Positions 28,312 to 58,979 of a DNA stretch of 64,000 bases are shown here, in pieces; positions within the stretch are counted from its first letter, which is position 1, and every line of letters begins with the position of its first letter. Below the pieces are notes generated by a model. It saw nothing but the letters and a program-made list of their open reading frames with translations, was not told the DNA's origin and made no database searches. The translations under genes and the position numbers were made by a program. Source of the stretch: a virus; the IMG/VR virus record IMGVR_UViG_3300046314_000711; one strand, 5' to 3'.

Positions 28312-28386
28312 GGGGCCGTAATTTAGCGGCTAGAATATCCGGTTTTTACCCGGTCCACGAGGGTTCGAGTCCCTCCGGCCCCTCCA
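28312..28386 (+). tRNA. tRNA-Lys(TTT)
   Basis: ggggccg/cggcccc acceptor, loop ttTTTac, TTCGAG T-loop, CCA. Confidence 0.75.
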
Positions 28387-28430
28387 TTTCAAAGCGCATT
28401 CAGTGTGAGTGTGTTTCGACATGGATTTAT

Positions 28431-28504
28431 GGGATCGTAATTTAATAGAAAAATACCGTGCTGATAACGCGGCTTCGACGGAGCGTAACCGTCCGATCCT
28501 ACCA
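28431..28504 (+). tRNA. tRNA-Ile(GAT)
   Basis: ccgtg-ctGATaa-cgcgg; variant T-loop; CCA. Confidence 0.8.
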
Positions 28505-28513
28505 CCATAATAT

Positions 28514-28595
28514 TTGAGTAGTCGACTGTCGGTATCGGTCATTTCCCTTTCACGGAAACGCGTAAGCAGGGGTTCAACTCCCCCTACTCAAACCA
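28514..28595 (+). tRNA. tRNA-Glu(TTC)
   Basis: tttcc-ctTTCac-ggaaa; CCA. Confidence 0.8.
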
Positions 28596-28725
28596 CTTTT
28601 CTCGCTCATCCTGTGAAGGATCGGCTTCCCTCTGCCCTACCCTACTGCAAAGTGGATGGGTAGCACACCTCGCTTACTGACCGAGGTTTACCAAATAGTC
28701 AGTAAGAATTTGTAGGGTTGCCTGC

Positions 28726-28797
28726 AGTCTGTAAGTGTTCATAGACGCACATAGCACTGTCACTGCTAAAGAACGGGAGCATTACCCGTACAGACTG
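28726..28797 (+). tRNA. tRNA-Asp(GTC), no encoded CCA
   Basis: tagca-ctGTCac-tgcta; extended flanking stem. Confidence 0.75.
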
Positions 28798-29710
28798 CAG
28801 GCAACCTTAGTTGATGAGAAAATATGCATTCGTGGTTTGGTACTACTGCCCACCGAATTGGGTCATCACTCCGGTAGTACTTTTTACCTTTAATTTCAAT
28901 CCATGCGTTATATTTCGGAAGATAGAAGTCTGGATAATACTTTCCTGGCTTTCCAGTTGGATAAGTGAAAGTAAAGTATGTTGTAGAATTTTTCAGCCAT
29001 TCAATATTGTGTGAATCCAGTAATTTTGCAAATGCAAGTTCAGCGCCTGAGTCCATTTGTTGGTCTTTATATGTTGAGCGATGCACAATCGTAGAATTTG
29101 GTTGAAATCCTCCACCTCTTCGAGTTAATAGATAACATTCATTCGAGCAAGTATTTCGTGTCGTAGTAGCAAACGTTTTATTGCACACTTGACATTGTCT
29201 TACTTTTGAATATGGTCCTAGTATTGTACGTACCGCTGCTTTACCATTTTTCGGGTTACGAGAGTGACAGACCCAGATACCTTCTAGATGTAGTTTATAT
29301 ATTCCACCTGGATTTTTCATTACTCCTGCGCGAATTTTTTGCTTAGTTTCAACTGAATGAACATAATCCCTTGTAGCATTAGTGGCGATTCCTGCACAGG
29401 TGTGACTGCAAAATGTATTATGCCTATTATTATATGATAGTGGAGTAGAACATTGCTTGCATATTGTAGGATCATTAGTGTACTCACTACGTCGAATGCT
29501 AACATTACGCTTGTGAGTAGCTGTAGACTTATCTCGTCCTCTTGCGCCATTTGTGATATTTTTGAGTTTAACTTCTTCGGACACTAGTGAAACATCCGGA
29601 AAAGCAATTTTGAAAGTATCTGTAGTATGGGAGTGAGTTTTCAAGTGAGAATTTGTAAGCTGGTTAAATTGTCTAGTGCAAATTGGGCAGGTAATCATAC
29701 GTAATATCAA
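28766..29710 (-). mobile_element. free-standing homing endonuclease (Zn fingers + PD-(D/E)XK)
   Basis: CPIC...HLKTH, FCSHTC, YYPDFYLP...IEIKG; inserted antisense in tRNA array. Confidence 0.8.
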
Positions 29711-29760
29711 GAAGTTATAATGTATTTATGGGTTCGTCAACGAACGACCCCGCCAAATTA

Positions 29761-29836
29761 GGATCATTAGCTCAATTAGTAGAGCGCTTGTCTGTCGAAC
29801 AAGAGGTAGCCGGGGCAGAGCCGGTATGGTCCGCCA
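29761..29836 (+). tRNA. tRNA-Asp(GTC)
   Basis: cttgt-ctGTCga-acaag; GCCA end. Confidence 0.8.
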
Positions 29837-29910
29837 AATTAAGGATACTAACAGCAAATCCAAACAATTTGACTTTTCTTCAAACCTAAAGTGTATCCTG
29901 TTTAATTTGT

Positions 29911-29986
29911 GGAGCCAAGGCCAATCAAGTGATGGCGGCTGTTTGAAAAACAGTGCAGGTTGGAGCGTTACCAACTGGCTCTACCA
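29911..29986 (+). tRNA. tRNA-Phe(GAA)
   Basis: gctgt-ttGAAaa-acagt; CCA. Confidence 0.8.
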
Positions 29987-30001
29987 CGTTTTTTAATTTA
30001 A

Positions 30002-30089
30002 GGAAGAATATCTACACAAGGTGTAGCACTGTTTCGAAATCAGTTGGAGTCTGTAAGGGCTTGGGGAGCATTACCTCATTCTTCCGCCA
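30002..30089 (+). tRNA. tRNA-Ser(CGA)
   Basis: ttCGAaa loop, long variable arm, GCCA. Confidence 0.8.
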
Positions 30090-30097
30090 ATAGTCAT

Positions 30098-30171
30098 GTT
30101 GTTCCTAGTGTAGTGTCCGCACACCTGTCTGTGAAACAGGTAGAGAGGGTTAGATTCCCCGGTTCAACCCA
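30098..30171 (+). tRNA. tRNA-His(GTG)
   Basis: cctgt-ctGTGaa-acagg; G-1:C73; acceptor has T-T mismatches. Confidence 0.7.
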
Positions 30172-30221
30172 AATTATTACATTTGTACACAAATGTAAAT
30201 ATCGCTATAATTGATTTCACT

Positions 30222-30857
30222 ATGAAATTTTCTGAAATGTTTCCAGAAGTACAAGAGCTGTTTGAAATGCCGCAAAATGTATATCCAACGGAATTTGATC
30301 TAACAACTCCTACAAAAAATAAACATTTTGTTGATCAGTTTTTTGCGACGAAAAAAGCTGTAGCTATTAAGCAGTATGGCGATTACACACTGTACGAAGC
30401 TCCTCGCGCCTACGCATTGATTGATAATGACACAAAGCAAGTTGTGTACGCTGTACGATTTACACTCCAGAACAATACGTTTATTGGCCACCAGTGTGCT
30501 CAACAAGTGATGGTGTGGCGCAACACCAAAGTGTTTGAAACAGAGGGACTAGCGAAAGAAATCTTTTTCAATAGTTTGTTGCAACACTATAAAGTGATGA
30601 TCACTGATTCGATGCAGACGGAAGATGGTCAGCGATTTTGGGACAAGCGAATTCTCGAAGCACTTCGAATGGGGTTGAATGTGTATTACATTAGTCTCAT
30701 TCCTCCTCGTGAAATTACCAAAATCAATAACGACCGGGAGTATCAAGCGCTTGCATCAAGTAAAGAAATTTGGGGCAATGATAACAAACACCAGGCTCGC
30801 CGTCTCGTGATATCCTCGGTGCCACTATCGATTCGGTACAAACACATGGTCAGTTAG
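30222..30857 (+). CDS. late protein inserted in tRNA array, possible GNAT-like fold
   Basis: TAAATA at 30196; leader ending LFE; GLAKEIF...DSMQTEDGQRFW. Confidence 0.6.
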   Translation: MKFSEMFPEVQELFEMPQNVYPTEFDLTTPTKNKHFVDQFFATKKAVAIKQYGDYTLYEAPRAYALIDNDTKQVVYAVRFTLQNNTFIGHQCAQQVMVWRNTKVFETEGLAKEIFFNSLLQHYKVMITDSMQTEDGQRFWDKRILEALRMGLNVYYISLIPPREITKINNDREYQALASSKEIWGNDNKHQARRLVISSVPLSIRYKHMVS

Positions 30858-30921
30858 TTAAATGGTATAACTGCGGTTTCATACGCCACTGTCGCAAGTT
30901 CGATTCTTGCACTGACCACCA
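30848..30921 (+). tRNA. tRNA-Met/Ile2(CAT)
   Basis: ttCATac loop, ggtcagt/actgacc acceptor, CCA. Confidence 0.75.
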
Positions 30922-30985
30922 AGTATTTGTTGACTTTTGTGAAAAATAGGGTAAAATAACCATATTGACGAACAAAGGACACGAA

Positions 30986-31213
30986 ATGAAAACAACCTTC
31001 ACATCAGTTAATTACATTAAGACTTGTGGTGATCAGTATGCTAAGTGGTCACAAGGTAGTAATGCCGCAATTGATGCTGTGTTGATGGTAGTTACCGATG
31101 ACGCTGGTAATAAAGTGTACAGCGATTGCGTACGAAAAGGTGGAATGTTTATTCGTACGCTTGCTGACTGCAAACGAGCATTGCAAAGTAATTTCCGCAA
31201 TCGCTCTGTATAA
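30986..31213 (+). CDS. early hypothetical protein
   Basis: TTGACT promoter at 30930; AAGGA RBS. Confidence 0.6.
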   Translation: MKTTFTSVNYIKTCGDQYAKWSQGSNAAIDAVLMVVTDDAGNKVYSDCVRKGGMFIRTLADCKRALQSNFRNRSV

Positions 31214-31437
31214 TATAGTTGTTGACTTTTTGTAAAATAGGGTAGATAATAGACGCATATGACAAAAATCACTATTCACACTTGTGCTTACAAAGGTTTC
31301 CGCCACATCACCGTGGGCATATACCGCTAAACTGTTTGGGAAGTGCTGGAGCATTTTCTACAAAGGTCAATTGATCGGTGCTACACCAAAAGTTCGTCGC
31401 ATTGAGTTCATCATCGGGGAAACTCTGATTGCTTAAT

Positions 31438-31614
31438 ATGAACAAATACAAAGCTCTTGTCGCAAAATACGACTTCACACTGTGGTATGACCGCAGCCTA
31501 CGGTTGTGGGCGCTAACTGATAATAACGGTCAAAAAGATGCGTATTACTTCACCAAGCACTTGATTGCTTCAGTAACACTTGAAGAATTTGAAAACTTTC
31601 ACTTTAAAGATTAA
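31438..31614 (+). CDS. hypothetical protein
   Basis: Short ORF downstream of promoter at 31221. Confidence 0.45.
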   Translation: MNKYKALVAKYDFTLWYDRSLRLWALTDNNGQKDAYYFTKHLIASVTLEEFENFHFKD

Positions 31615-31615
31615 C

Positions 31616-31873
31616 ATGAAATACAAACAAACGATAATTGCAATCTCAGTCCACGCAGAGGGGGTTAATCCTATCTTTGGTGAAGGTGTTACACACGTTC
31701 GTTTGAATGACGAAGCTGGTGGGTACTTCATTGAATTGCAACAAAGTGATGATACTTCAGAAAATGGTGTTGTCAAGTTTGATCCAGCTGAATGGGATGA
31801 GCTCAACGCCGCAGTCAAGTCGCTGTTAGATAGTGTATCGATTGAAACTAATTCTACTGGTATAGTAATGTAA
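31616..31873 (+). CDS. hypothetical protein
   Basis: NPIFGEGVTHVRLNDEAGGYFI. Confidence 0.6.
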   Translation: MKYKQTIIAISVHAEGVNPIFGEGVTHVRLNDEAGGYFIELQQSDDTSENGVVKFDPAEWDELNAAVKSLLDSVSIETNSTGIVM

Positions 31874-31930
31874 GAATATTGGAAGTGTGCACCGTAGGTC
31901 TTACATAGATCATTGTAGTTGAGAGTTTGA

Positions 31931-32139
31931 ATGAAACAATGCCCAAAATGTGGAATTGCTGAATGGATGTACCAACCTGTCCCGTTAGTCTGTGACCATA
32001 TCGATGGTGATGGCGCTAACAATCAAATAAGTAACTTTAGACTAGTGTGATGCATTGTTGCCCACTTTTAAGAGTAAGAATAGAGGTAGAGGTCGTAAAT
32101 ACGACCGTGAGTACCAACGCAAGAAGAATTTGGGATAAA
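31931..32139 (+). pseudogene. HNH endonuclease remnant
   Basis: CPKCGIAEW...DHIDGDGANNQISNFRLV then stop; KSKNRGRGR tail continues beyond the break. Confidence 0.75.
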
Positions 32140-32220
32140 TGGCTGAGTGGTCTATAGCACTGCGCTTGAAACGCAGCGAATCGAAAGGTTCCGTGGGTTC
32201 GAATCCTACTTTATCCACCA
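32133..32220 (+). tRNA. tRNA-Ser(TGA)
   Basis: ctgcg-ctTGAaa-cgcag, long variable arm, CCA. Confidence 0.9.
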
Positions 32221-32224
32221 ATTT

Positions 32225-32315
32225 GGAGTGTATAGACCGACAGGGTTCGGCAGCTGTTTGGAAAACAGTTAACTGACGTAAGTTGGTTGTGATTCGATTT
32301 CACTACACTCCTCCA
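32225..32315 (+). tRNA. tRNA-Ser(GGA)
   Basis: gctgt-ttGGAaa-acagt, long variable arm, CCA. Confidence 0.8.
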
Positions 32316-32322
32316 AAAATGT

Positions 32323-32441
32323 AGCTGCTCCTGCTGGGTTGGGAGTCCTGAACAGGGTAGTAGCTGTTCGATTCAGTTGTACGTACTGTACGCGTAAATC
32401 CACACGGGACGGAGAGGTTCGAATCCTCTAGCAGCTTCACA
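32323..32441 (+). ncRNA. tRNA-like RNA with two T-loop hairpins
   Basis: agctgct/agcagct closing stem; T-hairpins at 32362-32378 and 32413-32429. Confidence 0.6.
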
Positions 32442-32447
32442 GTTAAT

Positions 32448-32522
32448 GCCATTGAAGTGTAGAAAGCGACACACTTGTTTCGTAATCAAGAGAGTGGTGG
32501 GCAGGTCACCACAATGGCACCA
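32448..32522 (+). tRNA. tRNA-Thr(CGT)
   Basis: ttCGTaa loop; gccattg/caatggc; CCA. Confidence 0.8.
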
Positions 32523-32595
32523 TCTATAAGAGTTTTCGTCCCCTGCGATAATTCTTTTAAATGGTCTGAAATAGTTTGACTATATAAGATTATAC

Positions 32596-32741
32596 GCCCT
32601 GATAGCAAAGAGGATAATGCACTCGCCTTTTCTGAGAGGATACAGACCTCTCTCCACAGGAGATTCTCACGAGTCTCCTGTCCAGGAGGATAACTCCAAA
32701 AGGTAAGCGAGAGACCGTCCGTTCGAATCGGACTCAGGGCA
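32596..32741 (+). ncRNA. tRNA-Arg-like body with ~70-nt structured insert in anticodon loop
   Basis: gccctga/tcagggc acceptor, GGATA D-loop, ctcgc/gcgag stem, gtccg-ttcgaat-cggac. Confidence 0.75.
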
Positions 32742-32752
32742 CACAAAATTTA

Positions 32753-32825
32753 GCCACCTTAGCTCATCTGGTAGAGTACTGGTTTTGTAATCCAGAGGTG
32801 GCCCGTTCGAGCCGGGCAGGTGGCA
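32753..32825 (+). tRNA. tRNA-Thr(TGT)
   Basis: ttTGTaa loop, canonical arms. Confidence 0.9.
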
Positions 32826-32834
32826 CATCACACT

Positions 32835-32908
32835 AGATCCTTAGTTTAAAAGAAGAACTCCATCCTTACACGGTGGTTGCGGCGGGGCGGTACCGTCAGG
32901 ATCTACCA
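32835..32908 (+). tRNA. tRNA-Val(TAC)
   Basis: ccatc-ctTACac-ggtgg; CCA. Confidence 0.8.
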
Positions 32909-32915
32909 AATTCAA

Positions 32916-32989
32916 GCTCAGTTATTTCAGTGGTAGAATAATTCTTTGGTAAGGAATAGACGGGAGTCCGATTCTCCCACAGAGCACCA
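32916..32989 (+). tRNA. tRNA-Thr(GGT)
   Basis: attct-ttGGTaa-ggaat; CCA. Confidence 0.8.
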
Positions 32990-32998
32990 CACATTTAC

Positions 32999-33075
32999 AC
33001 GACTGTATCATAACTGGATAATGACCAGCATTGCGAGTGCTGAGTATGGAGGTTCAAATCCTCTCGGTCGTACCA
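32999..33075 (+). tRNA. tRNA-Arg(GCG)
   Basis: cagca-ttGCGag-tgctg; GGATA D-loop; CCA. Confidence 0.8.
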
Positions 33076-33106
33076 ATAAATAAACACACGCAAATTTACA
33101 GAATAT

Positions 33107-33198
33107 GGTGGAATGACAGAGTTAGGCTTATTGTGCGTTCCTGCTAAGAACTGCGCTCCGAAGGGGGCACGAGGGTTCGAATCCCTCTTCTACCACCA
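33107..33198 (+). tRNA. tRNA-Ser(GCT)
   Basis: ctGCTaa loop, long variable arm, CCA. Confidence 0.88.
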
Positions 33199-33205
33199 TT
33201 CATAT

Positions 33206-33285
33206 CCGCCGGTACGCCGCCTGTCCTCGAAATAGGAGAAAGCTAACTGGATAACATGCAGGTTCGAATCCTGTCCGGCGGTCCA
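33206..33285 (+). ncRNA. Arg(TCG)-like tRNA with displaced D-loop sequence
   Basis: ccgccgg/ccggcgg-TCCA; cctgt-ccTCGaa-atagg; agctaactggataa lies 3' of anticodon arm. Confidence 0.6.
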
Positions 33286-33364
33286 TTTCGTATCACTTGC
33301 CAACACTATTGGCAGTGGGTATGCTTACTTACTACTAAATAGTCTAAACAACTCTCCCACTAAT

Positions 33365-34492
33365 ATGTCCTCACTACTTCAACGTCTTTCTCTAATGGCT
33401 GGTGTCACTCTCACCGAAGCTCAACTGCTGCCAAAACCCGAGTCGAGTACTTTGGACTCAGCTGATGGTAAATATACAGCTAAAAAGCTTAGTGAAGCTG
33501 CTAATGAAGTTGGTTGGTACGTAACTAATGCAAATGACAAAGAAGTTGCTGGTCCAATGAGTGAACTTAAAGCTAGAGTGAAAGCGAGAGAACTTGGCGG
33601 CGATGCAAACGGATTTGCAGTTAGTTACGTGTCTGATTATGATAATCTCCGGGCGAATGAGAGTACGGAGATTAATGAAGCTGAAGATCACTACTTTTTC
33701 GGAAGAACTTCACACGACAGGTTTAAATCCAAGGCTGAAGAAATCCACGGACCAATCGCCAAGGGTGATCGCAACTCATCTGGCAATACTCCATATTACG
33801 ACAAAGCTGGTAAACAAATCGGTCACCACAGCATTGATGGTGAAGGCGACCACACGTACCGTGTATACGCCAAGCCTTCTGTTAAAGAAGCAACTAACAC
33901 TATGCAACGCTACGGCCAGAAAATCATCCAACGAGCAAAAGAGAAAGCCGCTGCTGAAAAGAAGCTAGAAGCTGCTAAAAAAAGTGTAAAAGAAGCTACT
34001 GGTAGCAACACACCATATGGTGATTTAGCTGACTGGAAAGCTGCAGCAGCTAAAGCAGGTCTCGAAGTTTATTCACAAGGTGCAGCCGATGGTAAATACA
34101 CAGCTAAGAGAGACGGTGAAGTATACGGGCGTTTTAACAAAGAATCTGGTGAAGGTTGGATTCACTCTTCTGCAATCGTGGAGGATGCTAACTATGATGA
34201 CGAAGATGAAGATGTTCCAGAAGGTCCGTTACCACAAGGTCTTGCTGAAATCGCTCGCCATCTTGGCTTCAAAACATTAGACACACGCAATAGTGACAGC
34301 CTCGACTTCAAAGAAGTTTCTGTAGGTGGTGTAAAAAGTGCACTACTAGCTGCGTACAATCTTGGCAAAACACAAGCTACTGCTCAAGCAACGCCTGCTG
34401 AACAGCAGCCGCAGTCTGGCGGTCTTCCAGTACCGCAGGGTCGAACATCTGCTGACCACCAACAGGCAGGCCCTGTTGGCATCGCCCGTTAA
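33365..34492 (+). CDS. late multidomain protein, probable internal head protein
   Basis: TAAATA at 33336; RLSLMAG..LTE leader; repeated VKE/INE/IVE motifs; terminator at 34497. Confidence 0.65.
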   Translation: MSSLLQRLSLMAGVTLTEAQLLPKPESSTLDSADGKYTAKKLSEAANEVGWYVTNANDKEVAGPMSELKARVKARELGGDANGFAVSYVSDYDNLRANESTEINEAEDHYFFGRTSHDRFKSKAEEIHGPIAKGDRNSSGNTPYYDKAGKQIGHHSIDGEGDHTYRVYAKPSVKEATNTMQRYGQKIIQRAKEKAAAEKKLEAAKKSVKEATGSNTPYGDLADWKAAAAKAGLEVYSQGAADGKYTAKRDGEVYGRFNKESGEGWIHSSAIVEDANYDDEDEDVPEGPLPQGLAEIARHLGFKTLDTRNSDSLDFKEVSVGGVKSALLAAYNLGKTQATAQATPAEQQPQSGGLPVPQGRTSADHQQAGPVGIAR

Positions 34493-34579
34493 AATGACCC
34501 GCTTAGGCGGGTTTTTTAATGTATCGACCTTTTAAAAAGAACTATATGGTAATCGTAGTGAATTAAACTTTTGATCGAT

Positions 34580-34774
34580 ATGATTCTAATATCAAGTGTC
34601 TTGTTGTACTGTGCTGTTCAATGTGGGTTGAATACAATATTCCTTTTGCAGCAAATGCGACGAGTACTTCGTAGAGGGCGATTGCTTGCCCGCTTTGGGG
34701 TGGCAACTATTGTGCTAATCAACACAATCCTAATCATCACACTTGCTGCTATTTCAATCGGTATCCTTTGGTAA
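34580..34774 (+). CDS. small two-TM membrane protein
   Basis: Two hydrophobic stretches flanking an Arg-rich loop. Confidence 0.45.
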   Translation: MILISSVLLYCAVQCGLNTIFLLQQMRRVLRRGRLLARFGVATIVLINTILIITLAAISIGILW

Positions 34775-34962
34775 TTTTAGTGACCAAACTTTTCATCGTT
34801 GTTGCAGGGAATATCGTCAGCGATCTCAATGAGGACGCTCCTAACGCAGTTGAAGTATTTTCATCCTATGAGACAGCGGAAGCATTTGGTGCTCTGTATG
34901 ATTACTATGATGTGAAAGAACGTGATTTGGACCCTGTTGTCCACAACCAGGTATTCAACTAA
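34768..34962 (+). CDS. hypothetical protein
   Basis: 64 aa ORF; start uncertain. Confidence 0.45.
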   Translation: MVILVTKLFIVVAGNIVSDLNEDAPNAVEVFSSYETAEAFGALYDYYDVKERDLDPVVHNQVFN

Positions 34963-34989
34963 ACTACTATCCTTACTTAAAAGGATTAT

Positions 34990-37134
34990 ATGACAACCCC
35001 AGTCCAATTTGGTGGTCGTGACGCGCGTGTATATCAGGTACTAGCTCGCAATGAGGTATTGCAAGCACTCAAAGATGGTCACAGTCGAATCTGTGTTGTG
35101 TTACCGACAGGTTGCCATGCAGTTGATACGAAAATTTTAATGTATGACGGGTCAATCAAAGCTGTGCAGGATGTTGTAGTGGGTGATAGATTGATGGGCC
35201 CTGACAATCAGCCTCGTAATGTATTGCAGTTGGCTCGAGGTACTGAGCAGATGTATGATATCGTACCTAAGTCTGGTGACGTGTTTAGAGTCAATGGTGG
35301 TCACGTACTTTCGCTAAAAACCGTTAATGAAGGTACGAGTAAATGGCGACAAAGCCCTTGTTTTTTAACAGGAACTGAAGTTGTTAATGTTACTGTTACT
35401 GATTATTTGAGGTGGTCTACTGACAAAAAACGATTGCATAAAGCATATCTAGCTAACAAATTAGAATTTACTGAACAAAATCATAAAATCCCAGCATATT
35501 TAATGGGAGTATACCTCGGGGATGGAAGTAGTCGCTCGGGTGTTAGCATTACTACCATGGATGCTGAAATTGCAACAGAGTTGACAACATTTAATGATCT
35601 ACACAAACTCCGCACGATAAAACGTGAAATGCATACTCCAAATAAAGCGTCTGTGTATTTCCCTGCTGGTACAGGTCGTGTGGGAGATAATCTTTGGAGG
35701 AATGAGCTTAAACAGTTAAGCTTATTTGGGGTCACTTCTCATCATAAATTCATTCCACCTGTTTACAAAATTGGTAGTGTAGAACAGCGCTTGCAGTTGC
35801 TTGCTGGACTGATTGATACAGACGGTTCTGTCTCAAAAAACACAGTAGAGTATACAACAGTTAGCAAACAACTAGCGCAAGATGTGCAATTTGTGGCTCG
35901 TAGTTTGGGCTTTCGGTGCAATATTAAAGTATATGCTCGTAAGAATAATTACATATGCTACACAATGCATATATCAGGTGCGGGTCAAGAACTCATCCCC
36001 ACTCGATTAGCGAGGAAACAATTAACTGCACGAGCACAGCGTAAGGATGTTCTTAAAACGAGTTTTGAGGTCGTGCCTGTAGGTATTGAACAATATTATG
36101 GGTTTACTGTTGATGGGGATAATCTCTATGTTATGGGAAATTTTTTCGTAACCCACAATAGCGGTAAAACACTTACCGCTGGTATTATCATGGTCGCATC
36201 CGAATTACGTACCATTCTTGGTATTCCAGTTGGTCAACCTCTCCGCGTCCTAATGATTGCTCATAGGCATCGTTTACTGAAGCAAGCTGAAGACTCATAC
36301 AGCGCTGCAGGCATTACCGTGATCAAAGACCACAAAAATACGCCATTTCAAGTGGGGTTCACAGGTACTTGCGACAGTGTTGTCGTGTTTAATACACTAT
36401 CTACGTTCAGTGACGTACCAAAGGATCTCTGTTGGGATATTGCCATTTTGGATGAGTGTCATCACGAGAGTTGCCTGACATTTCAATATAAGCTAGAGCA
36501 AATTAGCGCCAAACCGATCATTGGTCTTACAGCAACTCCGTTGAGAGCGGATGGAGTATTGTGCAAATTCTCGAAATTCGTCGAAACGATCTCTCGTGAA
36601 GACGCTGTCGCAGCTGGTTACCTTGCGGATAGTCACCTATATTCATTCATTGACTCCCCAGCCCGTGAGCACGTTGACATGGTGATGGATATCATCAACC
36701 TCAAACAAAGTGTGCTCGGTCAGACGATGGTATTCGTCCGCACAAAGCAGGAAGCGATTGACGTCACCTCTCGTCTCGAAAAGCTGGGACTGACAGCAGT
36801 TGCTCTTGTCAATATCAAGGAAAAAACACTGAACGAAGAACTGGCTAATTTCGAAAAAGGTGCAGTGCAGTTTGTAGTGTCATGCAATAAAATTGGTGAA
36901 GGTACAGATGTCAAGGGTTGTGAGAGTGTGATTATTGGGCGTACTACACAAAGCTTGCCACTGCTATCGCAAGTTATTGGACGCTCGGCACGGAATGATT
37001 GCGAATCTCACATCTATGAGATTATTAACCCACTATCCAACAGCAACATTACAGCTAGTGATATACTGAAGCCGCAGCTGCATGAAATCTGGTACAAAGT
37101 TCGCCAACAGTGGCGTCACCACACTGTTGTTTGA
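34990..37134 (+). CDS. SF2 DExH helicase with intein
   Basis: LPTG|SGKT Walker A, DECHH, GLTATP, EGTD, QVIGRSAR. Confidence 0.9.
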   Translation: MTTPVQFGGRDARVYQVLARNEVLQALKDGHSRICVVLPTGCHAVDTKILMYDGSIKAVQDVVVGDRLMGPDNQPRNVLQLARGTEQMYDIVPKSGDVFRVNGGHVLSLKTVNEGTSKWRQSPCFLTGTEVVNVTVTDYLRWSTDKKRLHKAYLANKLEFTEQNHKIPAYLMGVYLGDGSSRSGVSITTMDAEIATELTTFNDLHKLRTIKREMHTPNKASVYFPAGTGRVGDNLWRNELKQLSLFGVTSHHKFIPPVYKIGSVEQRLQLLAGLIDTDGSVSKNTVEYTTVSKQLAQDVQFVARSLGFRCNIKVYARKNNYICYTMHISGAGQELIPTRLARKQLTARAQRKDVLKTSFEVVPVGIEQYYGFTVDGDNLYVMGNFFVTHNSGKTLTAGIIMVASELRTILGIPVGQPLRVLMIAHRHRLLKQAEDSYSAAGITVIKDHKNTPFQVGFTGTCDSVVVFNTLSTFSDVPKDLCWDIAILDECHHESCLTFQYKLEQISAKPIIGLTATPLRADGVLCKFSKFVETISREDAVAAGYLADSHLYSFIDSPAREHVDMVMDIINLKQSVLGQTMVFVRTKQEAIDVTSRLEKLGLTAVALVNIKEKTLNEELANFEKGAVQFVVSCNKIGEGTDVKGCESVIIGRTTQSLPLLSQVIGRSARNDCESHIYEIINPLSNSNITASDILKPQLHEIWYKVRQQWRHHTVV
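35113..36159 (+). mobile_element. intein with LAGLIDADG endonuclease (349 aa)
   Basis: CHAVDTKILMYDG start, YLGDG and LAGLIDTDG, ends VTHN/S. Confidence 0.95.
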
Positions 37135-37165
37135 CCCCAACCAACATTTCTAATATAGTACTCGC

Positions 37166-50654: not shown

Positions 50655-50655
50655 C

Positions 50656-51396: not shown

Positions 51397-51568
51397 TGTG
51401 CAATATAAAACATCAATGATTGCCAAGCGTCCAACAACCTGGGACTTATCGTTTACTACACCACCATTGCTGTACTCTGCTGATAATATAGCAGCATTGT
51501 TAACGAAATTGCAGCCGTAAACTACTGCCGAATCTTTAGTTCGGCAGTTTCACGCCGCTCACACATAT

Positions 51569-52516: not shown

Positions 52517-52971
52517 ATACAAATATTGAGTTCAAGCGAGAAAGATTGAATGCGATCCGGCCACATATCGACGGATTGTTAGACTTTAACTACGATGAGC
52601 TCACGCTCAACAAGCACGTTATTAAACTCAATCCTGACTGGGTTAAGTATGATCAATTAGAACAAGAAAACAAGTTGATTATTTTCACAGTTCGCCACTC
52701 GGGTGTGTTAGTTGGGTACAGTTTTTTTATAGTTGATACACACCTACACTATAAAGATTTGGTCGTTGCTAATAATGATGTGTTGTTCATTCGTAAGGAC
52801 TATCGGCAGGGGATGCTTGGGATTAAATTTCTGAAGTTTTGTGACGCTGAATTACATCATGTCGATAAGATTGTGTGGCACGTGAAAGACGCTAATGATT
52901 TTAAACCTATTCTACATAGAATGGGGTATAAAAACGAAGATACTCTAGTGGGAAAGTTGCGCGTAGGGTAA
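52513..52971 (+). CDS. GNAT acetyltransferase
   Basis: LVGY, FIRKDYRQG, LHRMGY. Confidence 0.8.
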   Translation: MNTNIEFKRERLNAIRPHIDGLLDFNYDELTLNKHVIKLNPDWVKYDQLEQENKLIIFTVRHSGVLVGYSFFIVDTHLHYKDLVVANNDVLFIRKDYRQGMLGIKFLKFCDAELHHVDKIVWHVKDANDFKPILHRMGYKNEDTLVGKLRVG

Positions 52972-53008
52972 TGTTAGTGCCGGCCCAGTAAATATTGTTA
53001 TATTTGCT

Positions 53009-53599
53009 TTGATTGGGCATTGTGTGACCTGGCTATACCAACGAGTAACGATTCCAAACTATGAAGCACTAGCTGCGGAACTCAAATCAACCTTTGATGT
53101 ATTGACACGCAGTTACACTAGTGTCCAGCGCACCCAATTGTATATTACCTTATATGCTCATGAGATGTTGCCACTGTCTCCATTGTTGTACTCGTTCTTG
53201 AAATCTATTGGGCTACTCAACCGCTTTATGAAGAGTATCAATAGTACTCCAAATATCACTGTATCAAATATACTTCACATCGATTCCCCAAATAATTCAA
53301 TAAAGTATTCGTTCAACCTTCCCCTAAGTGATTGTAATGGTACCTACACAGCTTTTTATGCAGCTGATTCACCGCTTGTACTATCACCTTCAGGTAGAAA
53401 TTTAATTGCTCCACCTGGAATGGTTGAGCACGAGATAGATAGGGTGGAGTGTTCTACACCTATGTTCATTAATGCTAACACGCCCCACATGGGGGTATCA
53501 ACTAGACCTGGGCGGCTACTAATGTGTATTCGGTTTACTCCTGAATTAACTCGCCTGGAAGTCCAGCATATATGTAGCATCTTGAAATTCGCAGAATGA
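53009..53599 (+). CDS. 2OG-Fe(II) oxygenase/cupin-like protein
   Basis: LHID...FNLP...PHMG...R; start uncertain. Confidence 0.6.
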   Translation: MIGHCVTWLYQRVTIPNYEALAAELKSTFDVLTRSYTSVQRTQLYITLYAHEMLPLSPLLYSFLKSIGLLNRFMKSINSTPNITVSNILHIDSPNNSIKYSFNLPLSDCNGTYTAFYAADSPLVLSPSGRNLIAPPGMVEHEIDRVECSTPMFINANTPHMGVSTRPGRLLMCIRFTPELTRLEVQHICSILKFAE

Positions 53600-53712
53600 G
53601 AAGCATAACTTTGATCTGAGTTGATAGTAAAATACATGCAAGCGCACAAAATTGACATGACGTGGACCTAATTGCTACTAAATACAGTGGTAACAATAAA
53701 GGGTATTTTAAT

Positions 53713-56277
53713 ATGGCAACTTTTCAACACAGTTCGATAACGGGCGCAGACGTTCATAGCGTAGTAGCGTTTACAGCAACATCTACGTCAGCTCGTGACG
53801 CGCTATCGGTGGCAGCAGGTGATATCGGTAAGGTTTGCCGGGTCACCGCCGATAACACATTTTACATTTTAACAAGCACTTCTCCAGCCGTCTGGTCCCC
53901 GTTCAGCCCAACACCGTCTCTAGCTACTGTAGCAACATCTGGTGCATATGCTGATTTAACTGGTGCACCGTCTCTAGCTACTGTAGCAACATCTGGTGCA
54001 TATGCTGATTTAACTGGTGCGCCAACGATTCCTGATGTGTACACTCTACCAACTTCTTCCACATTGGTGCTAGGTGGTGTGAAAGTAGACGGTTCGACTA
54101 TCGACATTAATGGTAGTGGGGTTATTAGCGTAATAGGTGGTAGTGCTGCAACTCCTACAGCACGCGGTGCTGTGTACGGATCTGTAGACAACTTGGAAAA
54201 TACTGGAATCGGCAAATTCGCTCAAGCTACTGTTTCTACCACACTAACAGGCGATCGCAACACATCTGTTGGTGTATATTCACTGTATTCAATAACATCC
54301 GGTAATGATAATGCTGGTCTTGGTCACAATAGCTTACGTGGTTTGATATCGGGCAATCAAAACTCCGGTTTTGGCGCGTACTCGCTAAAAGCATTGACCA
54401 CTGGAAATCGAAACGTCGGTTTTGGTGCTCAATCTGGTGCAAATATTACAGGAGGCTATGGTAACATCGCGGTTGGCGTATTAGCACTCGATCAGTTGCG
54501 CGACGGCAGCCAAAACATCGCTATTGGTCAAGATTCACTAAAAGCACTGCGTAATGATGGTAGTACATACAATCAGCATTTCAATATTGCAATCGGTGCA
54601 TGGAGTGGTACAACCTTGACTTCAGGATACGATAACATTATTATCGGTACTAATGCAGAACCTTCCAGCGCCACTGTAAGTGGTGAAGTAACACTAGGTA
54701 CTACTACCTCCGTCAATAGATTCAGAATACCTGGCATTGGCTTGGATATTTCCAAAGCTGACGCCCAGGCAAACCACGACGGAAAAGTACTAGCATGGAG
54801 CACTGCTGCAAATTCCAGTGCTGGTGGATTTGTGTGGACTACCCCATCTACTTCGTACACCCTGCCAACAGCTTCTACGACAATATCAGGTGGTGTTAAA
54901 GTTGATGGTACCACAATTGCAATTGACGGCAGTGGCGTTATTAGTAGTATTGCTAGTGCTGCAGCTACTCCTACTGCATACTCGAAGCGCTTGATGCTTA
55001 CTGGCTCATCCACGATAGCTGGTACTGGTGCATCATCGTACGCCAACTCTTACGCCGGTAAACTAACAACTGCAATGACTGCACGTGGTTGGACTGTTGC
55101 GAATACAGGCATTTCAGGAAATGCGTCGCAAAATGTGATCGATAGATTCTATACTGATATTGCTCCTTTCAAACCTGATGTTGTAATGATCGGATTGACA
55201 ATTGCAAACGAAGGTATTTCGGGTAACGTCAACTTCAATAATGGTAAATTTGTTGGAGTGCAAACATACCTTAAAAACATATACAAGTTGGTTGATATGT
55301 GCAGGCAGATTGGTGCAAAAGCAATAATTGCAGGTCAATTTTCTCGTAACGAATATAACGGTAACGACTACGCATTTGCAAAATTTGTTGACAAAGAGCT
55401 ACAAACATCAAATATCCCTTATATCTTGTTGATGGGAACTGTTGATGACGGCACAGGTAATTACAAAACATTCATGACACCTGACGGCGTCCACCCAAAT
55501 AATCTTGGTCACGAAGCAATGTATCGTGCAATACCGCTATCGATGTTTGATAGAATACCAAACGGATTCCAGTACTGGGATGTTGACTATCCAAGCAGTG
55601 GCGTATATTTGAGTACTAATGACAACGTTGCATCCCCTATCAATATTCCACTAGATAACGTCAATAACGGTTATACAATTAGTTCATTGTCTGTTGAGCC
55701 AATTGGATGCTATTCAGTTGCGTTCTGGATTAAGAAGCGTAGTGGAGCTGCGAATGGACTCGCCTTTTTTGCTGCAAACAACAACGGTACCACTGGTGCT
55801 CCATTGCGCCTCCGTCAAGCAACTGGTAGTGAGTTGTATGAACTAGCAACTGGTGGCACAATCGTAGCTTCCGCAGTTAGTGCAGCAGATTTGCTTCCTC
55901 ACCACGTTGTTATAACTTACGAATACCAAGCAGGTCAATCTGTTGACGTAGCTAGTTTATACATTGACGGCGTGCTAATCGGTTCCGCTAATACTAACTT
56001 CGTAGGACAAAATCCATACTCATTCTCTCTGTTGGGTCGTCCAGACAATGCTGGTGTCAACGCTGTTGGTTATGAGATCTCTAAATTTGGTGCATGGAAG
56101 TCTGCACTAACACCTGATCAAGTTAAAGAAGCATACAGAGGTCGTTACCCTAAAGGTGGTTGCATTGCGTACTTGCCATTGTCAGATGCTAATACTGTAC
56201 AAGGTATTACATTGACACAAGTTGCAGCGTCTGATCGACTAGCAATTGTCAACAGTGCTAACATCGTATCGGTGTAA
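53713..56277 (+). CDS. tail fibre/spike with adhesin-like repeats, SGNH hydrolase and LamG-like domains
   Basis: LATVATSG repeats, LGGVKVDG, NxxxG repeats, GSS...DGVHPN, LYIDG; TAAATA at 53679. Confidence 0.75.
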   Translation: MATFQHSSITGADVHSVVAFTATSTSARDALSVAAGDIGKVCRVTADNTFYILTSTSPAVWSPFSPTPSLATVATSGAYADLTGAPSLATVATSGAYADLTGAPTIPDVYTLPTSSTLVLGGVKVDGSTIDINGSGVISVIGGSAATPTARGAVYGSVDNLENTGIGKFAQATVSTTLTGDRNTSVGVYSLYSITSGNDNAGLGHNSLRGLISGNQNSGFGAYSLKALTTGNRNVGFGAQSGANITGGYGNIAVGVLALDQLRDGSQNIAIGQDSLKALRNDGSTYNQHFNIAIGAWSGTTLTSGYDNIIIGTNAEPSSATVSGEVTLGTTTSVNRFRIPGIGLDISKADAQANHDGKVLAWSTAANSSAGGFVWTTPSTSYTLPTASTTISGGVKVDGTTIAIDGSGVISSIASAAATPTAYSKRLMLTGSSTIAGTGASSYANSYAGKLTTAMTARGWTVANTGISGNASQNVIDRFYTDIAPFKPDVVMIGLTIANEGISGNVNFNNGKFVGVQTYLKNIYKLVDMCRQIGAKAIIAGQFSRNEYNGNDYAFAKFVDKELQTSNIPYILLMGTVDDGTGNYKTFMTPDGVHPNNLGHEAMYRAIPLSMFDRIPNGFQYWDVDYPSSGVYLSTNDNVASPINIPLDNVNNGYTISSLSVEPIGCYSVAFWIKKRSGAANGLAFFAANNNGTTGAPLRLRQATGSELYELATGGTIVASAVSAADLLPHHVVITYEYQAGQSVDVASLYIDGVLIGSANTNFVGQNPYSFSLLGRPDNAGVNAVGYEISKFGAWKSALTPDQVKEAYRGRYPKGGCIAYLPLSDANTVQGITLTQVAASDRLAIVNSANIVSV
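53912..54020 (+). repeat. 54-bp tandem duplication in fibre gene
   Basis: PSLATVATSGAYADLTGA encoded twice identically. Confidence 0.9.
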
Positions 56278-56310
56278 ACTATAAGGAGTGTAAAAATCAA
56301 TACCTCTGGC

Positions 56311-56703
56311 TTGAAAACAATCATAGCAGGCTCACGTGGAATTACTGACTATAATATAGTCCACAAGGCGATATACGAATCGCCTTGGGTAATTACTGAA
56401 GTGGTGTCTGGTGGTGCTAGAGGTGTTGATACACTTGGCGAACAAGCGGCTGCCGCATTCGCCATCCCTGTGAAAGTATTTCCAGCTGCTTGGGCCACAC
56501 ACGGTCGAGCAGCTGGTCCTATTCGCAACCAAGAAATGGCTGAGTACAGTGATGGACTCATCGCAATATGGGACGGAGTAAGTACTGGAACTGCGGATAT
56601 GATCAGACGAGCGGAACGTATGAAGTTACGCGTTCACGTGATCAATCTGTCAACCGTGCCTGTGAAACCGTGGTACGATGATATGGATGAGTTTGGGTTT
56701 TGA
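56311..56703 (+). CDS. SLOG/YspA (DUF2493) family protein
   Basis: IAGSR, VSGGARGVD, AGPIRNQEMA, WDG.S.GT..MI. Confidence 0.88.
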   Translation: MKTIIAGSRGITDYNIVHKAIYESPWVITEVVSGGARGVDTLGEQAAAAFAIPVKVFPAAWATHGRAAGPIRNQEMAEYSDGLIAIWDGVSTGTADMIRRAERMKLRVHVINLSTVPVKPWYDDMDEFGF

Positions 56704-56713
56704 AAAATAACTG

Positions 56714-56892
56714 TTGACCCACTTTTCAAAATGTGTTACATTTAACTTATCGGTTCGCAAGAATGAAAGTTTGAACTAACCTGTTGACCAGATTTCGAAA
56801 ATGTGTTACATTAGACAAATCGGTTGATAAAAAAGATTTTTCTCCTAAACCATGAAAAATCGTTGACCACAAGAAGAGTTTGCATATATACT
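56714..56892 (+). promoter_or_regulatory. tandem sigma70 promoters of tRNA array 2
   Basis: TTGACC-17-TACATT at 56714 and 56784; TTGACC..TATACT at 56863. Confidence 0.75.
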
Positions 56893-56929
56893 TAAAAGAC
56901 TGATTAATTTAACTTAAAGAGAAACTAAA

Positions 56930-57037
56930 ATGAACGCCGTATTACTGAATCAACAACCGCTCTGTGCGCAACCGAATTATTGGTTGCAGCAAGCCTTTGT
57001 GCATTCGTTTTCCGCTAGTTCTGTAGAGACTCTCTAA
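56930..57037 (+). CDS. attenuator leader peptide of tRNA array 2 (MNAVLLNQQPLCAQPNYWLQQAFVHSFSASSVETL)
   Basis: 35-codon ORF with AAAGAG RBS; codons mirror array 2 tRNAs; contains antiterminator strand. Confidence 0.8.
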   Translation: MNAVLLNQQPLCAQPNYWLQQAFVHSFSASSVETL

Positions 57038-57065
57038 TAGAATAAAAAGCAAAAACAAATTTCAC

Positions 57066-57093
57066 AAGGGCTCCCTACAAGGAGCCCTTTTTT
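57066..57093 (+). terminator. attenuator terminator, array 2
   Basis: aagggctcc-ctacaa-ggagccctt plus T tract; 5' arm also pairs with 56992-57001. Confidence 0.9.
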
Positions 57094-57120
57094 ATTGAGC
57101 GATCGTGCACAATAAAGTGA

Positions 57121-57133
57121 TGTTCATTAAAAA
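57121..57133 (+). promoter_or_regulatory. boxA-like site
   Basis: tgttcattaaaaa. Confidence 0.6.
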
Positions 57134-57152
57134 TTAAAGAATATTGTAGTGC

Positions 57153-57225
57153 AGAGTGTTGGTGTAATTGGCAACATACAGAATTCCAAATTCTGCTGAT
57201 TTCAGTTCGAATCTGAAGCGCTCTG
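57153..57225 (+). tRNA. tRNA-Trp(CCA)
   Basis: cagaa-ttCCAaa-ttctg; canonical T arm. Confidence 0.85.
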
Positions 57226-57260
57226 CACTGCAATATTTGCGAAGAAATAGTTTTCTTTGT

Positions 57261-57344
57261 CCGTGTATAGGCTAGCCTGGTCAAGTCACTCGTTTTGGGG
57301 GCGAGAGTAGTAATACATCGCTGGTTCGAATCCAGCTACACGGA
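57261..57344 (+). tRNA. tRNA-Pro(TGG), long variable region
   Basis: ctcgt-ttTGGgg-gcgag; C1-G72, A73. Confidence 0.8.
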
Positions 57345-57360
57345 CAAAGAAAATTAATAT

Positions 57361-57445
57361 GGGGTGTTATACCGTTAAAGAGACGGTCCGGATTGTAAAC
57401 CCGGCGCTTTAAGCTCAGATGGAGCATTACCATCACACCCCACCA
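57361..57445 (+). tRNA. tRNA-Tyr(GTA)
   Basis: ttGTAaa loop, variable arm, CCA. Confidence 0.82.
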
Positions 57446-57463
57446 AAAATTAGTAATCTGTGC

Positions 57464-57538
57464 TGTGGTAGAGGCGTCTTGGTGACAACCGCGGAACTGT
57501 TAATTCCGATTAGCGTGTATCGTTCACACGTACCACAG
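57464..57538 (+). tRNA. tRNA-Asn(GTT)
   Basis: cggaa-ctGTTaa-ttccg; G73. Confidence 0.75.
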
Positions 57539-57563
57539 CACAGATTACTTAATAAAGCATTGC

Positions 57564-57645
57564 TGGCATATAGCTCGGTTGGTAGAGCGCTCAGTCTGGA
57601 CCTGAGAGACGCACATAAGTCGTATACATAGGTTTGAATGCTACT
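57564..57645 (+). pseudogene. degenerate tRNA (possibly Gln CTG)
   Basis: Good D arm and ctcag/ctgag stem around tCTGgac; T arm and acceptor 3' strand decayed. Confidence 0.5.
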
Positions 57646-57663
57646 AACGAAGTCAGTATTTTT

Positions 57664-57738
57664 CTCGGTAAAGCGTTGATGGCGTCGCACGTGTTTTGGG
57701 AACATGAGGGGAAGTTTCGAGCACTTCTACCGAGACCA
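57664..57738 (+). tRNA. tRNA-Pro(TGG)
   Basis: cgtgt-ttTGGga-acatg; CCA. Confidence 0.8.
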
Positions 57739-57746
57739 AGTTTTAT

Positions 57747-57818
57747 GGGGGCAGCAGTGGGCTGCGGTTCTGCCTTGCAAGTAGAATGTCTAGTGGGATT
57801 CGATTTCCCCGGCCTCCA
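57747..57818 (+). tRNA. tRNA-Ala(TGC)
   Basis: tctgc-ctTGCaa-gtaga; G3:U70. Confidence 0.7.
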
Positions 57819-57871
57819 CACATTTTCGGATAGCACCTTGCTATCTCTCAATCCACTGAATAGGTCGGTGG

Positions 57872-58150
57872 CGTGTTAATCGACTCTGCACACGCAGGGT
57901 TTTCAGTATCTACGATAAAGGTACGGCTAAGTTGTAATGCTAAAGAATTTATGCGCGATATGTCGAAAAGTGAGACAACTGCCTTTGACGCAGTACCAAA
58001 GAAGGGGCAGTACCTTCATCGCGTTCCAACTTATAGGAGATACTGTGAAAGCATTTGGTTCTAAACGAGCATACCACGACTGCCGAGTTTATCGTGCAGG
58101 ACGTGGTAAAAAGATCCTCTTCACCACTGGTGTCAAGAGTCGCAAACACG
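57872..58150 (+). ncRNA. unknown ~280-nt structured RNA
   Basis: Nested helices cgtgtt/aacacg, cgactct/agagtcg, cagtatct/agatactg, aaggtac/gtacctt. Confidence 0.55.
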
Positions 58151-58198
58151 GTCGCAAGACTGTAATATTGCAAGATGGTGAGAATTGATAGAGATTGC

Positions 58199-58278
58199 GC
58201 CCCTGTTGACAAATTGGAAAAGTCGTCTTTTTTAGAAAAAGAAATATTTTGCAGGTTCGAAGCCTGTCGGGGGCACCA
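58199..58278 (+). tRNA. tRNA-Leu(TAG)
   Basis: tcttt-ttTAGaa-aaaga; CCA. Confidence 0.8.
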
Positions 58279-58299
58279 AGTTTACAAGGAGATCGCAAT

Positions 58300-58470
58300 A
58301 TGAGCAAAAACGCAAAAAAGATCGCAGTACTAGAATCACGTATTGCAGAGTTGGAAGCAGAAATGAAGATGTCACTTCAAAGGAAGTTGTCTGGTAAGGT
58401 GGCATTTGATGTACCTGGCTGTCTTCGCAAGATTGCCGATCTGCGTAAAGATGTCAGCAACCTGAAGTGA
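58300..58470 (+). CDS. small coiled-coil protein in tRNA array
   Basis: AAGGAG RBS, 56 aa. Confidence 0.65.
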   Translation: MSKNAKKIAVLESRIAELEAEMKMSLQRKLSGKVAFDVPGCLRKIADLRKDVSNLK

Positions 58471-58500
58471 GAGTGCGATGCCATCATAATGATGGCACTA

Positions 58501-58684
58501 TTTTATGTCGTAGATTAGTGGAACCTGGAAAGCATCCGTACAAATGTGGACTGGAGGGCGCAACGAGTTGTTTGAAGCTAGTGGAGTGGCCACAAAGCCA
58601 GCAGAATCAATCTTCGTATGCTTAAATCGCTGTTCTTGGGTGAACGGAGACACTGTGTTGTGTAATGGTGCAGTCGACATAAAA
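58501..58684 (+). ncRNA. unknown ~185-nt RNA
   Basis: ttttatgtcg/cgacataaaa closing stem; no credible ORF. Confidence 0.45.
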
Positions 58685-58697
58685 TAGTTATAATTTT

Positions 58698-58780
58698 GCG
58701 AGTGTGGTGGAACGGGATACACTACTGTCTTAAACGCAGTCGCCCGTAAGGGATTGAGGGTTCGAGTCCCTCCACTCGCA
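58698..58780 (+). tRNA. tRNA-Leu(TAA)
   Basis: actgt-ctTAAac-gcagt, long variable arm. Confidence 0.9.
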
Positions 58781-58801
58781 CACATTTTTAGACTTTATTG
58801 A

Positions 58802-58885
58802 GTAGGCGTGGCAGAGCGGTCGAATGCGCGGGATTGCAATCCCCGATCCTTAAAGGACACGTCAGTTCAAATCTGACCGCCTACT
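58802..58885 (+). tRNA. tRNA-Cys(GCA), long variable arm
   Basis: ttGCAat loop; U73. Confidence 0.82.
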
Positions 58886-58902
58886 CAATAAAGTTTTTAT
58901 AT

Positions 58903-58979
58903 GCCCCCGTACGCTAAGAGGTAGTGCGACTGGACTTAAAATTTAGTGGCTGGGAGTTCGAATCTCCACTTCTTCACCA
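58903..58979 (+). pseudogene. chimeric tRNA-Leu(TAA)
   Basis: ctTAAaa loop and T arm present, but acceptor strands do not pair. Confidence 0.6.

Follow-up and report, generated by a model that had tools for sequence, protein, structure and literature searches.

Why does a phage keep its tRNA genes in two separate arrays that have no amino acid in common? This question is raised by IMG/VR record IMGVR_UViG_3300046314_000711, of which we analysed a stretch of 64,000 nucleotides, hereafter the window. It is part of the genome of an uncultured freshwater myovirus, with genes for a tail sheath, a head-tail adaptor and a DNA polymerase. The two arrays lie at 28312-33285 (array 1) and 57153-58979 (array 2), and an earlier note on this DNA had read them as a partition of the genetic code without overlap, the genes having been sorted into two separately inducible regulons. 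We find that each array is preceded by a short open reading frame (ORF) composed almost entirely of the amino acids assigned to that array. We propose that the two arrays are paralogous operons built on one chassis, in which the codons of the leader gate the tRNA supply on demand. All the evidence for such gating is computational, and it makes this explanation probable.

The tRNA genes of the window were reannotated with ARAGORN, by default and at a 90% threshold, together with the Rfam tRNA model. Zero matches were obtained at the 90% threshold across 51 kb of coding DNA and the tRNA calls are therefore specific; a threshold of 80% was noisy. Array 1, on the plus strand, contains 17 assignable tRNA genes, and the eleven amino acids listed for it earlier (K, I, E, D, F, S, H, M, T, V and R; set 1) were all recovered. 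Array 2, also on the plus strand, holds genes for W, P (two copies), Y, N, A, L (anticodons tag and taa) and C, as well as a D-armless unit with anticodon taa and an odd unit at 57561-57658. Seven of the eight amino acids given for it (W, P, Y, N, Q, A, L and C; set 2) were confirmed, but the tRNA for Q, which had been entered with a question mark and corresponds to the odd unit, was not. No amino acid is common to the two arrays of the window, and Gly has a tRNA in neither.

The leader of array 1 (leader 1; 34 codons, 28095-28199, plus strand) has 23/23 residues of its codons 2-24 in set 1, with all eleven amino acids present (p = 3e-6; background fraction 0.575). The leader of array 2 (leader 2; 35 codons, 56930-57037, plus strand) shows the same pattern, since its codons 2-22 are made of W, P, Y, N, Q, A, L and C plus one Val, that is 20/21 residues in set 2 (p = 1.7e-8; background fraction 0.359). 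For leader 1 the agreement extends to the codons themselves. In the window as in a close relative described below, all 23 sensing codons can be read by array-1 anticodons under strict wobble and none by those of array 2, and 13/16 (window) or 15/18 (relative) of the anticodons are represented. The three classes of Ser codons correspond to three different Ser tRNAs, and the Arg codons CGC and CGT to an unusual GCG anticodon. Each amino acid has one to seven sensing codons, scattered and never in a run. As the earlier note had stated, Gly is the sole amino acid absent from both sensing segments, which the composition of both leaders bears out, and it is missing from both leaders in 3/3 genomes that have two of them (window, relative and Ralstonia phage RsoM2USA). 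A weak match to the Rfam Phe_leader family was also found at 56976-57095, over leader 2.

The leaders are embedded in a common regulatory chassis. A sigma-70-like promoter (27950-27978, plus strand), one of a tandem set, lies ahead of leader 1, and the same core is found before array 2, where tandem promoters (56714-56812, plus strand) precede leader 2; a search with the promoter pattern gave 3 matches where 0.35 were expected. On the other side of each leader, an intrinsic terminator with hairpin and T-run stands on the plus strand 58 nt (terminator 1, 28228-28253) or 59 nt (terminator 2, 57066-57093) ahead of the first tRNA gene, and a conserved A/T-rich element follows it in both arrays. 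We folded the leaders with RNAfold, with and without the terminator 3' arm. When this arm is left out, the codons right after the sensing segment are predicted to pair with the terminator 5' arm, the two antiterminator strands being 28168-28178 (codons 25-28 of leader 1, pairing with 28225-28233) and 56993-57001 (in leader 2, pairing with 57063-57071), both on the plus strand. With the full leader sequence, the terminator is predicted to form and the post-sensing codons to fold back onto the sensing segment. This predicted three-way pairing is the classical trp-type attenuator arrangement. A generic search of 37 kb for a short ORF followed by a terminator and a tRNA returned exactly these two sites. 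Scans with the terminator motif gave 53 matches in IMG/VR and more than 120 in genomes, none of them with a tRNA within 400 nt, and these are therefore generic terminators. No T-box was found in an Rfam search of the window with gathering and E-value thresholds. Finally, RNA libraries were mapped as contigs only, so that stretches without cover carry no meaning; one contig covers 27930-28309, across terminator 1, which is compatible with read-through but is a weak hint and not proof.

Is this organization maintained in other phages? A close relative lineage is represented by a metagenome contig (L005), anchored on a homologue (49% identity) of the window gene 60524-61861, and by the IMG/VR contig L007/L008, found with an identical promoter core. 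L005 carries the same promoters, an orthologous leader 2 (L005:670-774), the terminator and an array 2 that reads Y, Y, N, N, P, Q, L, W, L, C, L, L. The leader 1 ortholog is found on L007 (L007:6270-6374), and array 1 of L007/L008 comprises 23 genes (K, K, I, I, E, E, D, D, F, F, V, S, H, M, S, S, T, V, V, T, R, S, R), with the same eleven amino acids in the same order. Orthologous tRNAs of the window and the relative share about 65-88% identity, and orthologous leaders differ by synonymous or in-set changes only. Moreover, none of the lineage-specific extra tRNAs breaks the partition, Lys (ctt), Val (gac) and Arg (tcg) belonging to array 1 and Leu (caa) and Leu (gag) to array 2. A terminator and an antiterminator are predicted for 4/4 leaders of the window and the relative. 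When the four regulatory regions (both arrays, both genomes) were aligned, the promoter core, the terminator and the post-terminator element were invariant, whereas the sensing segment differed between the arrays and was kept between the genomes. What the leaders sense is therefore essentially the only difference between the two operons.

We then turned to more distant phages. The tail sheath of the window has about 41% identity with its counterparts in Xanthomonas phages XacN1 and Xoo-sp13 and in Stenotrophomonas phage RAS14, and 54% identity, over part of its length only, with that of RsoM2USA, which places all these phages in the same broad group. At the nucleotide level neither the arrays nor the leader region had a match among cultured phages (megablast, blastn), and the flanking proteins had none by tblastn. 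Scans of IMG/VR with the flanking proteins, with an exact 48-mer and with a degenerate leader-2 pattern also returned nothing. XacN1 and Xoo-sp13 have their tRNA genes in one common order, along which the two sets are mixed as if at random, with 10 changes of set label in the first and 14 in the second against 12 expected, and 1 in the window phage; set membership is therefore not ancient. The conservation of the partition expected in relatives thus holds for the close relative lineage, which keeps the sets, their order and the leaders, but not for these two phages.

With a generic scan we looked for short ORFs made up of the amino acids that the downstream tRNAs carry. In RsoM2USA it found two unannotated leader ORFs, each heading a large tRNA cluster and followed by a terminator and an overlapping antiterminator. 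Leader A contains S, H, W, Y, L, P, V, E and C, exactly the nine amino acids of its cluster, which can read 21/22 of its codons. Leader B contains F, N, A, Q, R, M, D, V, I and K ahead of a cluster for M, I, N, Q, K, R, F, A, V, P, D and T, which can read 28/30 codons; its region has no DNA homologue among other cultured phages. The two RsoM2USA leaders have only Val in common, and only Gly is absent from both. Agrobacterium phage Atu_ph07 has a single leader with all eleven amino acids of the clusters behind it, together with a strong terminator and an antiterminator. Altogether, in the five leader-cluster pairs of the window, RsoM2USA and Atu_ph07, three distant genomes, 48/53 leader amino acids have a downstream tRNA (pooled Fisher p = 3e-20) and 2/50 cluster amino acids are missing from the leader. 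An antiterminator pairing is predicted in the window, the relative, RsoM2USA and Atu_ph07, and in six leaders it overlaps the conserved post-sensing codons. The groupings are not the same from one phage to another: W, P, Y, L and C always stay together, as do K, I, D, F, M and R, while E, S, H and N, Q, A switch sides, and the leaders follow. We regard this co-variation of leader and cluster as the strongest evidence, from sequence comparison, that the partition is functional. In XacN1 the scan gave a candidate only (L014:17605-17730, 41 codons), in which 34/36 residues come from F, D, I, A, V, H, S and R, the amino acids of eight downstream tRNAs (p = 1.4e-10); it lacks a T-run terminator, and its Xoo-sp13 homologue has an ordinary composition. 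The composition scan gave no convincing leader in RAS14 or Xoo-sp13.

Two observations concern the annotation of RsoM2USA. The annotated coding sequence RsoM2USA_176 (MG752970.1, 111742-112104) covers tRNA genes and leader A on the opposite strand and is probably spurious. In addition, ARAGORN calls an Ile (gat) tRNA near position 87067 of MG752970.1, whereas the genome paper reports no tRNA-Ile.

From the gene sets, the composition and codon match of the leaders, the alternative pairings, the conservation and the co-variation, which are direct results of the computation, we infer leader translation, a read-through that depends on stalling and a physiological trigger. The chassis would act in the order in which it is built, from tandem promoters through a short translated leader and an antiterminator/terminator switch to the tRNA genes, each leader sampling the amino acids of its own array and, for the most part, the exact codons decoded there. 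When the leader codons are read fast, the ribosome would cover the antiterminator strand, the terminator would form and the array would stay off. If any sensed codon is read slowly, the stalled ribosome would leave the antiterminator free and RNA polymerase would enter the array. Slow reading could result from host tRNAs that are scarce, cleaved by a defence nuclease, degraded in the course of infection or uncharged. With almost no amino acid in common, the two leaders would provide two independently triggered tRNA supplies, each shutting itself off once the supply is restored.

Several points weigh against this scheme. Only 12/21 codons of leader 2 are readable under strict wobble in the window, a weaker fit than that of leader 1; its GCC and CTC codons require four-way wobble, its one Val codon belongs to set 1, and it has five Gln codons although no tRNA-Gln is assigned with certainty. 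The relative has Ala in its leader and its Ala tRNA in a third RNA block. The Shine-Dalgarno matches of the leaders are weak, and their translation is suggested by the conservation pattern. The RNA-library contigs may be DNA carry-over or strain variants. Amino-acid starvation would fire the sensor although extra tRNA would be of no help. Lastly, the disjointness of the arrays can itself come from gene order alone. Random assignment of the genes to two arrays as large as these would give disjoint sets with P = 0.002 (window) or 1e-5 (relative), but a random cut of the observed gene order is equally clean at 9/26 positions (window) or 10/34 (relative). As about one third of such cuts are clean, non-overlap alone is weak evidence. 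The leaders, however, predict the array for all 19 amino-acid families, an outcome of 1 in 75,582, and the evidential weight comes from this match between leader and array, not from disjointness.

The frequency of clean cuts is also an argument for a historical accident, in which a nearly non-redundant, family-ordered tRNA set was split once by an insertion of about 24 kb of genes and the leaders adapted later or are unrelated. There would then be no design behind the disjoint sets. The conserved order in the relative would simply reflect shared ancestry. Such an accident leaves unexplained why each leader is written in the amino acids of its own array and why the isoacceptors and the lineage-specific extra tRNAs are all found in the matching one. 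Furthermore, no single cut of the interleaved order of XacN1 and Xoo-sp13 gives these sets. We therefore consider the accident unlikely. Alternatively, the leaders might only autoregulate, gauging the phage's own tRNA output after destruction of the host tRNAs and keeping a steady level for each block, with no response to the host or its defences. The architecture would be identical, with termination resuming as the array products accumulate, and the codons do match the phage anticodons, including the unusual GCG of Arg. This is a variant of the gating we propose and not another mechanism, and the sequence does not separate the two; we give its restricted form slightly less credit than the accident. 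Finally, it is very improbable that the leaders are ordinary small proteins or untranslated, the hairpins plain terminators or processing sites and the composition match coincidental, even though the ORFs are short, have no strong ribosome-binding sites and no Pfam homologues, and the Xoo-sp13 homologue of the XacN1 candidate looks ordinary, because coincidence would have to account for the composition of both window leaders (p 3e-6 to 1.7e-8), for the pooled match in three distant genomes with different groupings, for synonymous or in-set changes between orthologs and for antiterminators placed over conserved post-sensing codons in six leaders.

On-demand gating by leader codons therefore remains our preferred explanation, and the two arrays are likely to be two complementary, separately gated tRNA regulons. 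The claim that the genes had been sorted into separately inducible regulons is to this extent supported, by the chassis and the leader-array match for the separate gating, but it does not apply to the whole tRNA set. Sorting itself is plausible, given that the sets are interleaved in XacN1 and Xoo-sp13 and regrouped, with matching leaders, in RsoM2USA and Atu_ph07. As rationales for set membership we considered synthetase class, codon box, type II tRNAs, queuosine tRNAs, biosynthetic family and known anticodon-nuclease targets; by reasoning, none of them fits. A comparison of leader codon order with tRNA gene order revealed no colinearity. The isoacceptors are about 66% identical and are not recent tandem duplicates.

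We then asked where glycine is supplied from. A third RNA block starts at 62060 and runs past the window end (62060-64000, plus strand), with rrn-like promoter cassettes, tRNA-like payloads and no leader ORF. In L005, the syntenic block (L005:6300-12800), downstream of the anchor gene, also has rrn-like promoter cassettes and no leader ORF, and it encodes Gly (tcc), Leu (tag) and Ala (tgc). In both genomes this layout would suit an rrn-type antitermination leader, in which boxA-like elements come after tandem promoters and a leader ORF is lacking. The Gly (tcc) gene lies 3.5 kb beyond the homologue of gene 60524-61861, and by this synteny a Gly tRNA is expected about 1.3 kb past the window end. 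XacN1 and Xoo-sp13, too, have a Gly (tcc)-Leu (tag) pair set apart. The earlier note had offered a third sensor or a Gly tRNA outside the window: the Gly tRNA is likely, by synteny with L005, whereas no third sensor was found, the third block being devoid of a leader ORF both in the window (62060 onward) and in L005. Since the third block of the relative repeats Leu (tag) and holds Ala (tgc) and Gly, the partition is not genome-wide and applies only between the two leader-gated arrays. Gly, and in the relative also a second Leu and Ala, would thus be supplied from a leaderless block with promoters of ribosomal RNA style.

The individual genes of the arrays are as follows. Array 1 comprises Lys (ttt) at 28312, Ile (gat) at 28431, Glu (ttc) at 28514, an Asp (gtc)-like unit at 28726, Asp (gtc) at 29761, Phe (gaa) at 29911, Ser (cga) at 30002-30089, His (gtg) at 30098, Met (cat) at 30848, Ser (tga) at 32133, Ser (gga) at 32225, Thr (cgt) at 32448, Thr (tgt) at 32753, Val (tac) at 32835, Thr (ggt) at 32916, Arg (gcg) at 32999 and Ser (gct) at 33107. 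Ser is thus served by four anticodons and Thr by three, and the array additionally contains three tRNA-like units without an assignable anticodon as well as small ORFs. Between the two Asp (gtc) units lies an HNH-like zinc-finger ORF (28766-29710, minus strand), apparently missing from some strains, as a contig from run X18 joins 28711 to 29879; similar endonuclease ORFs are found elsewhere in the arrays of relatives (L005:1064-1467 and about 2100-2770). Array 2 comprises Trp (cca) at 57153, Pro (tgg) at 57261, Tyr (gta) at 57361, Asn (gtt) at 57464, Pro (tgg) at 57664, Ala (tgc) at 57747, Leu (tag) at 58199, Leu (taa) at 58698 and Cys (gca) at 58802. Its D-armless tRNA-like gene (58915-58979, 64 nt, anticodon taa) has a canonical T arm and an encoded CCA, and scores 28.7 bits, just below the Rfam tRNA threshold. 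In the odd unit at 57561-57658 the T arm is defective; the 7-nt loop gives TGG (Pro) with a C at position 33, and CTG (Gln) only if the loop is irregular, both readings belonging to set 2. A second odd unit, at 33206-33285, can be read as TCG (Arg) or CGA (Ser), either of which falls in set 1, and occupies the slot of the relative's Arg (tcg) (L008:7998-8075). In both odd units, position 33 of the anticodon loop is C in place of the near-universal U.

Unusual RNA structures are frequent in these arrays. Non-canonical T-loops of two recurring kinds, one with an apparently swapped 54/58 pair and one G-rich, occur in good cloverleaves, mostly with encoded CCA (28431-28504, 28726-28798, 29911-29986, 30002-30089 and 57361-57445; 29761-29836, 32448-32522 and 32835-32908), and the Rfam tRNA model misses or under-scores several of these tRNAs. 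Asp-like, Pro, Asn and Cys bodies (about 28713-28809, 57252-57353, 57452-57549 and 58793-58893) are enclosed in acceptor-stem extensions of 15-19 bp and have no CCA; long variable arms, unusual for their isotype, are a further feature of the Pro and Cys units. A conserved structured RNA of about 190 nt without Rfam match lies between array-2 tRNA genes (58490-58690; L005:3200-3390). An insert with a hairpin interrupts the anticodon loop of a tRNA body at 32596-32742, in array 1, and of another that heads the relative's array 2 (L005:894-997), and the two inserts have a loop motif in common. Elsewhere in the window, the helicase gene 34990-37134 is split by an intein, with Hint and LAGLIDADG domains within ResIII/Helicase_C.

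Large tRNA clusters of jumbo phages have been described for XacN1, with 56 tRNA genes (PMC5852040), and RsoM2USA (PMC8504454), in papers that treat gene content and codon usage and make no mention of leaders, terminators or attenuation. Full-text searches of the literature likewise turned up no account of phage tRNA genes preceded by leader peptides or controlled by attenuation. Phage tRNAs have been viewed as a means of countering tRNA-targeting defences (PMC10264068). So far they are explained by codon compensation or by escape from tRNA-cleaving defences. If our proposal is correct, these phages would detect which codons are failing and supply the corresponding tRNAs through two complementary channels. 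We lean towards extending it to a clade of jumbo phages, where leader peptides may serve as multiplexed meters of decoding capacity that gate tRNA clusters, their composition co-evolving with clusters that can be re-partitioned into one, two or more complementary regulons, with Gly systematically outside the sensed sets; this would be an undescribed layer of control in the contest between phage and bacterial defence over tRNAs. Since two cultured phages, RsoM2USA and Atu_ph07, carry the same unannotated design, the idea is directly testable. Such a leader would also offer synthetic biology a natural multi-input sensor of decoding capacity.

How does this system compare with known ones? Multivalent attenuators are found in bacterial amino-acid operons, such as the ilvGMEDA leader, which senses Ile, Leu and Val, and the thr leader, which senses Thr and Ile, in addition to trpL, hisL and pheL. 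The phage leaders resemble them in that a short ORF rich in regulatory codons is followed by an intrinsic terminator and a mutually exclusive antiterminator, predicted over the 3' part of the leader, and in that several amino acids would be sensed at once. They differ in the number of amino acids, 8-11 per leader and 19 covered by two complementary leaders, and in their target: the genes downstream code for tRNAs and not for biosynthetic enzymes or synthetases, and the system is therefore attenuator-like but outside the classical target class. In pheST attenuation, the pheM leader senses one amino acid and controls a synthetase, and T-box riboswitches bind uncharged tRNA directly, without a ribosome. 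Both share with the phage leaders the principle that genes of the translation apparatus are turned on when decoding of a given amino acid falters. Unlike a T-box, of which the Rfam search of the window gave no example, the phage leaders would depend on the ribosome. The arrays themselves resemble the clusters of XacN1 and RsoM2USA in their large tRNA sets for nearly all amino acids, with small ORFs and homing endonucleases in between, but a partition into leader-matched sets is not described for the published clusters. What appears to be new here is the application of leader-peptide attenuation to tRNA genes arranged in complementary sets.

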